A DNA stretch of 64,000 nucleotides from a plasmid: NCBI RefSeq assembly GCF_056746865.1, contig NZ_JBWKMP010000002.1; one strand, written 5' to 3'. The first letter of the stretch is position 1. Each line of letters begins with the position of its first letter. A program made the position numbers and the translations under genes. Under the pieces are notes generated by a model that saw only the letters and a list, made by a program, of their open reading frames with translations, did not search any database and was not told the DNA's origin. Below, piece by piece: positions 61,247 to 63,253 of the stretch.

Positions 61247-61717
61247 ATGACCAAATATTATGATCGCAGTGGAATTGAAATCTCCAGCGCAAAAATCCGC
61301 TGTGTTGATTCTGTAAAAGGTACTGCGGAATATACTTTTCGTATTCTTTGCGATAAATGCAATGGTCGGGGAGAGCGTAAGCATTTTTATAGAAGTCGCT
61401 GTATGGCTTGTAAAGCCACGGGTTACAGCCTCGAAACGACCCGCACTGCTTACACGCTGAATGCGCTGTACCGCATTAATGCTCAAGCTGCCCGCAAAGT
61501 GTCAGCATCCTTGCAAAACGAGCGTTTGAGGACTGAAAACGCCCACAACTCTGCGTTCAATGCATGGTGCAGATCTCATCAAAAAATGGTTGATGCAATC
61601 ACCCAGCAATCCAGCAGTAATAATTTTCTGGAAAGCCTTAAGTCTTCTTTAACCCACCAGCGTCAGTTAAGTGATAAGCAGCTGGCAGTCGCCGCCCGCA
61701 TTTTAGGGATTCATTAA
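61247..61717 (+). CDS. Zinc-finger-like small protein
   Basis: 156-aa ORF with the cluster CDKCNGRGERKHFYRSRCMACKATG, resembling the Cys cluster in 37848..38564. Confidence 0.45.
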   Translation: MTKYYDRSGIEISSAKIRCVDSVKGTAEYTFRILCDKCNGRGERKHFYRSRCMACKATGYSLETTRTAYTLNALYRINAQAARKVSASLQNERLRTENAHNSAFNAWCRSHQKMVDAITQQSSSNNFLESLKSSLTHQRQLSDKQLAVAARILGIH

Positions 61718-61766
61718 TTCAAAGCCCTTTTAATTTAATTTTAAGGTCAATTATTACGGAGGAACT

Positions 61767-62063
61767 ATGATCCATTCATTTAAAGACAGACGGCTTGAAA
61801 AGTTCTTCCGTAATGGAAAAACAACGGCAGGTATTCCTTCTGAAATTATTAACGCGATTCTGTGTCGACTCGAAACGCTGGATAATGTCCAGAGTGAGCG
61901 GGAGTTATTATCCAACAGCTTGCGTTATGAACGCTTAAGAATGACGTCAAACCGTTATTCCTCCATTCGAGTAAACTCTAAGTATCGATTATTCTTTGAA
62001 TGGAATGATGGCGCACATAATGTCCATTTGTCAGCACATGACTATAAATCGCTCATCCATTAA
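61767..62063 (+). CDS. higB: HigB-like (RelE/ParE superfamily) toxin
   Basis: 98-aa ORF beginning MIHSFKDRRLEKFF and ending ...SAHDYKSLIH, matching from memory the conserved N-terminal (I-x-SF-x-x-K-x-L-x-K-x-F) and C-terminal (DYH) signatures of plasmid-maintenance killer HigB toxins. Confidence 0.6.
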   Translation: MIHSFKDRRLEKFFRNGKTTAGIPSEIINAILCRLETLDNVQSERELLSNSLRYERLRMTSNRYSSIRVNSKYRLFFEWNDGAHNVHLSAHDYKSLIH

Positions 62064-62071
62064 GGTTAAAA

Positions 62072-63253
62072 ATGAAGCTATTTTCAATTTCATCCCGGGA
62101 TACAAGCATGGACGCGATGTTTTATATCCAGGCCAGTACTAAACAACAGGCAAGTTACATATTTAGTACCCTTTCCCCGAAGCCTACTGCGAACTGCCAG
62201 CTTACAGATTTGCAGAATGAGACGGTCGTCCCTTCCATAAGCCCTATTTCGCTTTCACTTAACCCCTGGTCGATCAATTCCCAGTCCCGAACCCGGGAAT
62301 TGAGTATGGCCACGCATGGTCTTAACCTGATCTGTGCAGTCACGGATGAGCATACCCGTCAGATAGTAGACTTTTGCGATAACCTTGGACAGCAGCTTAA
62401 GGATCCGGACGACAAAAGCGCCTGGGTTAAGCTCATTAATTCTGAATGCGCATTGCTTAATTCTCCGCGTTTATATCCCGTTCTGCTGGAGCCGGAGACA
62501 CCGGCACAATTTGAAATCTTTGTGCCAGCTCCGGAAGATGGCGATCACGACACGGTTATAGCCAGCGTTGTTGAAGAATGTTTCGGAGATGAATGCCGGT
62601 ACAGAGCAACGGACAAAGCTTTTGCAATGTCGGAAAAGCCAATCATCAGGCTGGAAGCACATTTCAATGACAAACGGGAAAAGGTTTTAGAACTGACCTT
62701 TTCCAGTTTCAACCTTTCACTTTCTGCGTCCGTGTATGAACACCAGCTACGTCAGATTTTATTACTTTGCGAAGATTTTGGCGTAAGGCTTCAGGGTAGA
62801 GCCGGGGCATCCTGCCACATCAATATGCGCAGCGCTTACCGTCGTCTTGCACATGTCGGCACCGGCTCTCGCCCAGGTGATGGGAGTGATGTGCGGGGCT
62901 ATACCTCATCTAAAGAGCAAAAAGATGTTAAGGGGCTGCTCGATAAGTCAACCAGGGGAAGTGAGCTTGTACCGGCGAGGCACGGGCAGCAGTTTAACGG
63001 TGTCTTAGTGAATGCCACACCCGCACCGGCCACGACGGGTTTTATATACCTGTCGCATGATTTTCCGGAAGGCCAGTTTATGATGACAGCCGAGGTGTTG
63101 CATGTTGGAATAACACCGGGCGGGATCTACTACATTGAAACACTGGACGGATACCGGTTTATCGTTACAGCGTTTGAAAAGGGATTAATGAACGGTTTAA
63201 GGGAGTTTTTGGCTGTAAATGAGGACTACTTTAAGTATTACCGCTGGTCTTAG
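62072..63253 (+). CDS. Hypothetical 393-aa protein immediately downstream of the HigB-like gene (atypical partner)
   Basis: Start lies 8 bp after the higB-like stop; no evident helix-turn-helix; much larger than canonical HigA antitoxins. Confidence 0.4.
   Translation: MKLFSISSRDTSMDAMFYIQASTKQQASYIFSTLSPKPTANCQLTDLQNETVVPSISPISLSLNPWSINSQSRTRELSMATHGLNLICAVTDEHTRQIVDFCDNLGQQLKDPDDKSAWVKLINSECALLNSPRLYPVLLEPETPAQFEIFVPAPEDGDHDTVIASVVEECFGDECRYRATDKAFAMSEKPIIRLEAHFNDKREKVLELTFSSFNLSLSASVYEHQLRQILLLCEDFGVRLQGRAGASCHINMRSAYRRLAHVGTGSRPGDGSDVRGYTSSKEQKDVKGLLDKSTRGSELVPARHGQQFNGVLVNATPAPATTGFIYLSHDFPEGQFMMTAEVLHVGITPGGIYYIETLDGYRFIVTAFEKGLMNGLREFLAVNEDYFKYYRWS

Follow-up and report, generated by a model that had tools for sequence, protein, structure and literature searches.

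A conserved three-gene cassette in the IncHI plasmid backbone joins a HigB-family protein to two uncharacterised protein families

Three genes at the locus

The sequence analysed here, referred to as the window, is a stretch of 64,000 nucleotides (nt) of plasmid DNA (NCBI RefSeq assembly GCF_056746865.1, contig NZ_JBWKMP010000002.1) from the backbone of an IncHI2 conjugative plasmid, and the element in question is a cassette of three genes towards its end, with a relative of the toxin HigB in the middle. The three open reading frames (ORFs) all lie on the + strand, at 61247-61717 (156 amino acids, aa), 61767-62063 (98 aa) and 62072-63253 (393 aa), with 49 nt separating the first gene from the HigB-like gene and 8 nt between the stop codon of the latter and the 393-aa ORF. 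An earlier reading of the same DNA (the original prediction) had given the three ORFs and the 8-nt spacing exactly as the ORF calls do. The 3-kb region around the cassette is 100% identical to many 200-280-kb plasmids typed as IncHI2A, MOBH and MPF_F, whose hosts are E. coli, Salmonella, Klebsiella and Enterobacter. RefSeq names the products, in order, “hypothetical protein”, “type II toxin-antitoxin system RelE/ParE family toxin” and “flavin reductase family protein”. The IncHI2 literature describes the cassette only as a “partial” higB (PMC9019673), and no functional study of these three proteins was found in the literature.

The middle gene (61767-62063, + strand) encodes a basic protein of 98 aa (isoelectric point, pI, 9.7) of the HigB family and RelE fold, a proposed ribosome-dependent mRNA endonuclease toxin. 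The family assignment, made originally from the N-terminal signature, is confirmed by profile hidden Markov model (HMM) search: Pfam PF05015 (HigB-like_toxin) matches the full length of the protein (E = 6.2e-18, residues 4-88 against model positions 2-88 of 91), a match was also obtained to the PHROG family phrog_3066 “toxin of TA system” (E = 8.9e-18), and phmmer against the PDB recovers the solved HigB of Proteus vulgaris (4mct_B, E = 7.5e-6) and GraT (6f8s_B, E = 4e-4). The nearest HigB relative outside the clade, P0079 (38% identity), has a canonical 98-aa HTH_3 HigA directly downstream, hence the large gene of the cassette occupies the higA position. HigB-like orthologues are 60-90% identical where their neighbour proteins are 30-65%, and at the sequence level this is by far the most constrained of the three genes.

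The C-terminus requires a correction, as the DYH-type ending originally proposed is not present. It reads D92-Y93-K-S-L-I-H98, that is, the DY pair, a four-residue insertion and a terminal His, and across the orthologues the insertion has the consensus K-S-L-[I/V] followed by an invariant His98. P. vulgaris HigB cannot do without any one of His54, Asp90, Tyr91 and His92, and Arg73 has a contributory role (PMC5027501). The equivalents of Arg73, Asp90 and Tyr91 are conserved as R74, D92 and Y93, and His54 is replaced by Glu55 (Lys in locus L006); as Glu also occupies this position in P0079, the canonical relative with a normal HigA, Glu55 is compatible with activity. The counterpart of His92 is either Lys94, by alignment, or the invariant terminal His98, with the KSL[I/V] insertion as the cause of its displacement. 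Cleavage of mRNA by an engineered HigB that has Lys at position 92 (“ΔH92”) was ~190-fold slower (PMC5027501). The DY-KSLI-H ending in place of DYH therefore raises the question of whether the HigB-like enzyme is active.

A second non-canonical clade of HigB-like proteins was observed in Klebsiella MOBH/MPF_F plasmids (~97 plasmid records; locus L019 4001-5044, Klebsiella variicola plasmid NZ_CP129756.1). Its members (103 aa, 44% identity) end in …LTAHAHA and are followed within ~10 nt by an unrelated ORF of 111-119 aa and a putative membrane protein of 129 aa. These downstream ORFs were considered as a split form of the 393-aa protein and rejected (hhalign probability 0.2%).

The third gene encodes the large partner in which the original prediction saw no obvious helix-turn-helix (HTH), and the absence of an HTH or HigA-type domain was upheld by profile scans, structure models and fold searches. 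Scans of Pfam, NCBIfam, PADLOC and PHROG gave no family for the 393-aa protein, the models and fold searches showed no HTH, the fold searches returned no significant structural neighbour, and a profile search of PDB sequences with the family and with its C-terminal domain returned noise only. The name “flavin reductase family protein” (RefSeq/PGAP, WP_001424497.1) was rejected for want of profile, sequence or fold support, neither Flavin_Reduct nor the flavin mononucleotide (FMN)-binding split barrel being found in the protein, and it appears to be a propagated mis-annotation; a variant with 95% identity is named “hypothetical protein” in many records. The family is tiny, with 20 clusters at 90% identity, and an exhaustive profile search of 1.84 billion proteins yielded, at 50% identity, no more than two full-length representatives.

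Its architecture consists of two tandem α/β repeats, a linker and a pleckstrin homology (PH)-like β-barrel. Repeat 1 (residues 1-125; 62072-62446, + strand) runs strand-strand-helix-four strands-helix in the AlphaFold2 (AF2) model. Repeat 2 (residues 126-245; 62447-62806, + strand), the proposed HigB-binding part, is acidic (pI 4.4-4.8 in five of six lineages). The AF2 model of residues 1-245 has a predicted local distance difference test score (pLDDT) of 62-91 by 10-residue block, and hhalign relates the two repeats to each other with a probability of 95.9% (E = 5e-9). No relatives of these N-terminal repeats were found outside the family in the exhaustive profile search of 1.84 billion representatives. 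The linker (residues 246-300; 62807-62971, + strand) is poorly modelled, with pLDDT <50 over residues 244-277, and tolerates interruption.

The most conserved part of the protein is the PH-like β-barrel with its C-terminal helix (residues 301-393 and stop; 62972-63253, + strand). This domain of ~95 residues carries the motif FDGV…G.xFGS..F.DG..I.TSEIV…YIET..GSRYLI…N..Y…WS and also occurs on unrelated contigs, either as a stand-alone protein of 110-145 aa or as the C-terminus of other proteins. The stand-alone family (P0031-P0056; loci L003 3001-3423, L004 2531-2950 and L005 3001-3399) has no Pfam match and its genes sit among small hypothetical ORFs; in three longer proteins (P0052-P0054) the domain is fused to other N-terminal or C-terminal regions. 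Pairing of the stand-alone domain with HigB was rejected, since the ORFs that precede it in L003, L004 and L005 have no relation to HigB.

The first gene (61247-61717, + strand) encodes a basic protein of 156 aa (pI 9.8, net charge +13) with a helical C-terminal half, a proposed regulator or third component. The Cys cluster from which it was originally called zinc-finger-like is, as read from the sequence, a single DnaJ-type zinc centre (C35-K-C38-N-G-R-G with C52-M-A-C55-K-A-T-G), and weak profile matches to DnaJ (TIGR02349, 4.9e-4) and to anti-TRAP (3.8e-3) agree with this. DnaJ-type domains in the PDB match weakly (E 0.05-0.08) and the uncharacterised phage family phrog_4046 matches at 4e-12. 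Because there is one zinc centre only and no J domain, the protein is not a DnaJ chaperone. The CxxCxGxG … CxxCxxxG pattern is invariant in five lineages, the net charge lies between +8 and +13 across lineages, and the family is narrow (22 clusters).

Conservation of the trio

The same trio was present at every full-length homologue of the large protein that was located (30%, 47%, 49%, 52% and 63% identity). In each of these loci the zinc-finger gene and a 98-aa PF05015 gene stand directly upstream of the large gene while the flanks differ, and the IncHI1 prototype R27 carries the trio at 64,810-66,827. Its recurrence in each divergent homologous locus examined means that the three genes have not come together by chance. 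The unusual arrangement originally noted for the toxin and its large partner is thus real and strongly conserved, but the unit has three genes, with the zinc-finger gene included. The three families are small and co-extensive, with 20 clusters for the large protein and 22 each for the HigB-like and zinc-finger proteins.

Presence was counted by tblastn over 72,556 plasmid records, with a coverage criterion of at least 80% in one place. The zinc-finger protein matched 1300 records (1298 at this coverage), the HigB-like protein of this clade ~1300 (~1297) and the whole large protein 1304 (1260); taken separately, residues 1-245 of the large protein matched 1303 records (1296) and residues 280-393 matched 1296 (1289). 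Every part of the cassette is kept in at least 99% of ~1,300 IncHI1/IncHI2 plasmids, hence presence/absence counts cannot tell which neighbour is indispensable.

The ratio of non-synonymous to synonymous substitution rates (dN/dS), computed where dS is saturated, was 0.04-0.12 for HigB, ~0.1 for the zinc-finger gene and 0.15-0.25 for the large gene. Judged by these ratios, all three genes are under purifying selection, and the pattern is the usual one for a constrained toxin with a faster-evolving partner. The gap between the zinc-finger and HigB genes varies from 40 to 63 nt across lineages and its sole conserved part is a strong ACGGAGG ribosome-binding site. Between HigB and the large gene the gap is 8-15 nt, the ribosome-binding site overlaps the HigB stop codon, and no conserved internal promoter was found at this junction. 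Both junctions are in keeping with a single operon.

A canonical antitoxin encoded elsewhere on the plasmid was considered and rejected. In positions 1-225,000 of the reference IncHI2 plasmid NZ_LT985297.1 (235 kb, all but the last 10 kb), no HigA-like coding sequence is annotated, and tblastn with canonical HigA over the same 225 kb gave a best E of 0.088. An RNA antitoxin, as in type I or type III toxin-antitoxin (TA) systems, was likewise rejected: no Rfam match had E below 0.9 and no repeat array adjoins the toxin gene, the two short repeats that were found both lying downstream of the cassette.

A promoter element common to other operons

Upstream of the zinc-finger gene, the sole block conserved in six lineages consists of CAGGTTATTAGCC, a variable spacer and then TTCTGTCAT, and the rest of this intergenic region is not conserved among them. 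The first element, CAGGTTATTAGCC (61182-61194, + strand), lies in the -35 region, forms an imperfect palindrome (GGyTA-T-TArCC) and is probably the site of a dimeric regulator. An extended -10-like element, TGTCATGAT (61208-61216, + strand), with putative promoter activity, is placed 16 nt 3' of the conserved motif, and TGnCAkwAT is conserved at this element in the six lineages. A terminator-like hairpin found by consensus scan (60953-60969, + strand), after the upstream gene for an Ig-like protein of 805 aa, is the probable 5' boundary of the cassette transcription unit.

The promoter motif is not confined to the cassette. Unrelated operons also have the sequence GGTTATTAGC(C), equally spaced from a TAnAAT box and 53-63 nt ahead of their start codons. 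In the 64-kb window there are three exact copies of the 10-mer, against ~0.1 expected, at 57912-57921 (- strand, before a divergent gene), 61184-61193 (+) and 63603-63612 (+). The last of these, a second copy of GGTTATTAGC on the + strand with TATAAT 17 nt later, precedes the next gene (ATG at 63661) and marks the start of the next transcription unit. The element GGTTATTAGCC is found at three further operons of the IncHI2 plasmid. Its copies on NZ_LT985297.1 are at 39955, 53298, 66104, 68523 and 73718, it occurs in other loci as well (L018 3318 and 4982; L024 90-99 and 1763-1772; L013 2311 and 9023; L010 484), and it is conserved from IncHI2 to IncHI1 and related plasmids, at corresponding places. 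Over the 225 kb of NZ_LT985297.1 that were scanned, each of the best five copies falls within 39.9-73.7 kb, and a relaxed motif scan gave 9 matches compared with 2.95 in shuffles. As regards autoregulation, the only conserved upstream element is GGTTATTAGCC in the -35 region, whose palindrome is imperfect and which is common to other operons. Because other operons have it, the cassette probably shares its regulation with a run of mostly small ORFs that separates Tra1 from repHI2, and the shared GGTTATTAGCC promoter architecture suggests a putative plasmid-wide regulon.

This run (NZ_LT985297.1, 36-76 kb) extends for ~40 kb between Tra1 (mobI/mobH/traD) and repHI2, covers the window end and beyond (loci L001, L014 and L023) and consists mainly of small ORFs, the greater part of them unannotated. 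Among its genes are hok, DUF957, DUF3085, an HNH gene, one of the PAPS-reductase family (794 aa) and at least three for orphan DNA methyltransferases. In content it resembles the establishment or anti-defence gene sets of plasmid leading regions; such leading regions are enriched in TA genes and orphan methyltransferases (PMC11541004). The cassette lies 36-42 kb from the probable origin of transfer (oriT).

The gene upstream of the cassette in IncHI2 (58395-60812, + strand) encodes the 805-aa Ig-like (DUF4165/Big_3) protein, and further Ig-like paralogues are present elsewhere on the plasmid. In L013 a homologue sits downstream of the cassette (6403-8790), hence the Ig-like gene is a neighbour outside the unit. 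A TacA/GNAT (TacT-like) TA pair is inserted just 3' of the cassette in two related plasmid lineages (L010 6295-7046 and L012 8401-9158), and was not found at this place in IncHI2 or IncHI1. With insertions in two lineages, the neighbourhood of the cassette seems to accept TA-type cargo.

Natural disruptions of the cassette

The IncHI plasmids include natural disruptions of the large gene. In 23 Salmonella plasmids an IS21 element is inserted in the linker at about codon 252 (L015, 5621/5622 junction, NZ_CP100686.1, and 22 further plasmids), and as the junction is identical in 23 of 23, this represents one event followed by clonal spread in a single successful lineage, from human samples wherever a source was recorded. 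The zinc-finger and HigB genes remain intact in this lineage, residues 1-252 of the large protein are intact beside HigB, and an ORF of its own preserves the C-terminal domain. In the mcr-1 plasmid pECJS-59-244 (NZ_KX084394.1; L017 1-4060), the zinc-finger gene and HigB are gone, along with two-thirds of the large gene from its 5' end, and an ISApl1-mcr-1-pap2-ISApl1 insertion stands in their place at this locus, hence the whole cassette can go together in a plasmid that is still conjugative by typing. A further plasmid, pSTEC1024_1 (CP061265.1; L016 2373-3554), has several frameshifts in the large gene next to intact zinc-finger and HigB genes; these may represent a pseudogene or assembly indel errors, and the plasmid was set aside as a possible sequencing artefact. 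The disruption cases do not show which partner neutralises HigB.

Proposed mechanism and alternative explanations

We tentatively propose that the cassette is a non-canonical, tripartite, type II TA-like operon of the IncHI backbone in which the 393-aa protein replaces HigA, a reading to which we give a little less than even credence. The HigB-like protein would cleave mRNA after binding to the ribosomal A site, and the acidic 393-aa protein, encoded in the higA position, would serve as neutraliser by binding this basic toxin directly, most probably via the two tandem N-terminal repeats that are found in this cassette only. The PH-like barrel, as it is found without HigB elsewhere, would have a separate role, probably in binding or sensing. 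The basic zinc-finger protein would take the nucleic-acid-binding and regulatory role that normally falls to the HTH of HigA, or be a third component, with transcription presumably starting from the conserved promoter with GGTTATTAGCC in its -35 region. The likely role of such an operon would be plasmid addiction or abortive defence. Complementary charges are consistent with this proposal (pI 9.6-10.1 for HigB against 5.2-5.9 for the large protein in five of six lineages), as is the IS21-split lineage, in which HigB still has residues 1-252 of the large protein, uninterrupted, beside it. The proposal draws further on the family membership of the toxin, the higA position of the large gene, the co-conservation of the trio, the dN/dS pattern, the tight junction of HigB with the large gene, the lack of a HigA on the 225 kb of reference plasmid, the retention of R74, D92 and Y93, the occurrence of Glu55 in P0079 as well, and the partner swapping documented for type II TA systems (PMC10440598). 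Several observations weigh against it. The C-terminal insertion of four residues sets Lys where P. vulgaris HigB has the essential His92, and the related Klebsiella clade is without any DY(H) motif. The charge argument fails in lineage L006. Approximately 40 plasmids have an intact HigB beside an interrupted large gene, hence the contiguous 393-aa protein is dispensable for host viability. Furthermore, the best-conserved part of that protein is found in other mobile elements without HigB, and the promoter motif is no private operator, as unrelated operons have it too.

Some of these observations would also suit a domesticated, catalytically weak or inactive RelE-fold module belonging to a co-regulated establishment or anti-defence set of the plasmid, in which HigB would bind ribosomes or RNA, the large protein would act via its widely distributed PH-like domain, and addiction would play no part. 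The natural D-Y-K arrangement resembles the inactive engineered HigB, DY(H) has been lost from the Klebsiella clade, other contigs carry the C-terminal domain as a protein by itself among small ORFs without annotation, and the promoter motif occurs at four or more other operons clustered in the ~40-kb run with its orphan methyltransferases, hok and PAPS-reductase-like gene, in keeping with the gene content of leading regions (PMC11541004). We nevertheless consider such a module rather doubtful, as the invariant terminal His, the retention of D92, Y93 and R74 and the very strong constraint on the whole protein fit an active enzyme, the distance of 36-42 kb to the probable oriT and the position of Tra1 do not by themselves establish leading-region status, and PADLOC matched no defence or anti-defence family. 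A fuller form of the same idea, to which we give similarly little credence, has the HigB fold recruited as the ribosome- or RNA-binding part of a plasmid-wide establishment or anti-defence programme that is switched by a GGTTATTAGCC-recognising regulator; the latter is possibly the zinc-finger protein itself, and the PH-like domain of the 393-aa protein would in that case be a new effector or sensor domain of wide distribution. The opposite assignment of roles, in which the zinc-finger protein is the actual antitoxin (in the relBE-like order of antitoxin then toxin, by anti-TRAP-like protein binding) and the 393-aa protein an accessory, sensor or effector, draws on the constant place of the zinc-finger gene directly upstream of HigB, its full length in 1298 of 1300 plasmids compared with ~40 interruptions of the large gene, its weak similarity to the anti-TRAP zinc finger, and the persistence of a plasmid lineage in which the large gene is split. 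We regard it as unlikely: being strongly basic as the toxin is, the zinc-finger protein is better suited to binding nucleic acid than to masking a basic RNA-binding surface, its 40-63-nt gap to HigB is uncoupled whereas the large gene is tightly coupled, and the related Klebsiella clade has no zinc-finger gene. The IS21 lineage does not discriminate, as the N-terminal 252 residues of the large protein remain.

The cassette may alternatively serve as a TA-derived abortive-infection defence, where the core mechanism is the same as in the proposed tripartite operon and the role is defence instead of addiction, the large protein restraining the toxin until a trigger from phage or foreign DNA is sensed, either by the PH-like domain or by the zinc-finger protein. 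In its favour, phage defence is a function of many TA-like modules (PMC10440598), one conserved domain of the multi-domain partner is separable, and GNAT-type TacAT modules and restriction-like genes near the cassette in related loci suggest a variable, defence-type neighbourhood. A PADLOC match was not obtained, and the cassette belongs to a fixed backbone set and not to patchily distributed island cargo, so a defence role also seems improbable to us. Least credible, and to our minds very improbable, is the current description in the IncHI2 literature (PMC9019673), which amounts to an orphan or partial TA, a higB remnant with its antitoxin lost or in trans and unrelated genes on either side. 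This runs counter to the strict co-conservation of the trio at 30-100% identity while flanks change, the coupled junction of HigB with the large gene, the co-extensive small families, the strong purifying selection on HigB and the lack of a HigA on the 225 kb of reference plasmid; the co-conservation data in particular largely exclude it. The alternatives offered by the original prediction (a non-canonical TA, a toxin-effector arrangement or a recruited HigB domain) have thus been narrowed by these computations but not settled.

Among the major carriers of multidrug resistance in Salmonella, E. coli and Enterobacter are the IncHI1 and IncHI2 plasmids, whose core backbone includes the cassette. 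If the 393-aa or zinc-finger protein does neutralise HigB, it would represent a new antitoxin family with a new fold, in a new tripartite layout for a RelE-type toxin, and would reveal a function in plasmid maintenance, a possible target for destabilising these plasmids. Two more handles, on the large uncharacterised block of small genes in IncHI plasmids, come from the stand-alone PH-like family and from the promoter element common to several operons.

Comparison with known toxin-antitoxin systems

Among known systems, the one that the cassette would most resemble in its working is higBA of plasmid Rts1 / Proteus vulgaris, with which it shares several features. The toxins are of the same family (32% identity over the full length) with the equivalents of R73, D90 and Y91 kept, the toxin gene comes first with its partner directly downstream, and both systems are plasmid-borne. 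The partner here differs, however, being acidic, 393 aa long and without an HTH or recognised fold, whereas HigA is a small XRE-HTH protein of ~100 aa. There is also a conserved third gene upstream (the zinc-finger protein), the toxin has a four-residue insertion before its terminal His and Glu for His54, and the promoter motif is common to other operons in place of the private HigA operator. With no HTH-containing HigA in cis or, over the 225 kb examined, in trans, the cassette lies outside the canonical higBA definition.

As a three-gene operon around a RelE-superfamily toxin, the cassette is similar to the toxin-antitoxin-chaperone (TAC) system HigB-HigA-SecB, to paaR-paaA-parE and to omega-epsilon-zeta. 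In these known tripartite systems neutralisation and regulation (or stabilisation) are performed by different proteins, and a comparable division of labour is proposed here by analogy. Our cassette differs from them in having no SecB-like chaperone, HigA, HTH or ribbon-helix-helix (RHH) regulator, both partners belonging to uncharacterised families. Profile scans detected neither a SecB nor a HigA domain in either neighbour protein, and as there is no SecB, the cassette is not a TAC system. The Klebsiella locus L019 is similar in having a HigB-like first gene on a large MOBH conjugative plasmid, a non-HTH ORF within ~10 nt and an orphan methyltransferase nearby, but its downstream ORFs are unrelated to the 393-aa family, it has no zinc-finger gene and its toxin lacks DY(H).

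A further parallel is found in the NetFlax network and Panacea (PanA), where a known toxin fold is likewise joined to an unrelated, modular, multi-domain neutraliser candidate, one domain of which is found elsewhere. The partner described here has no Panacea/DUF4065, ImmA, AAA or other recognised antitoxin domain, and unlike in partner-swapped systems the pairing is confined to one plasmid lineage and is not promiscuous. As type II TA systems are well known to exchange partners (PMC10440598), the cassette does not represent a new category. It is a real, conserved and unexplained feature of clinically important plasmids, in which two uncharacterised families are attached to a known toxin, and the presence of a 393-aa protein in place of a small antitoxin points to an undescribed kind of toxin partner.

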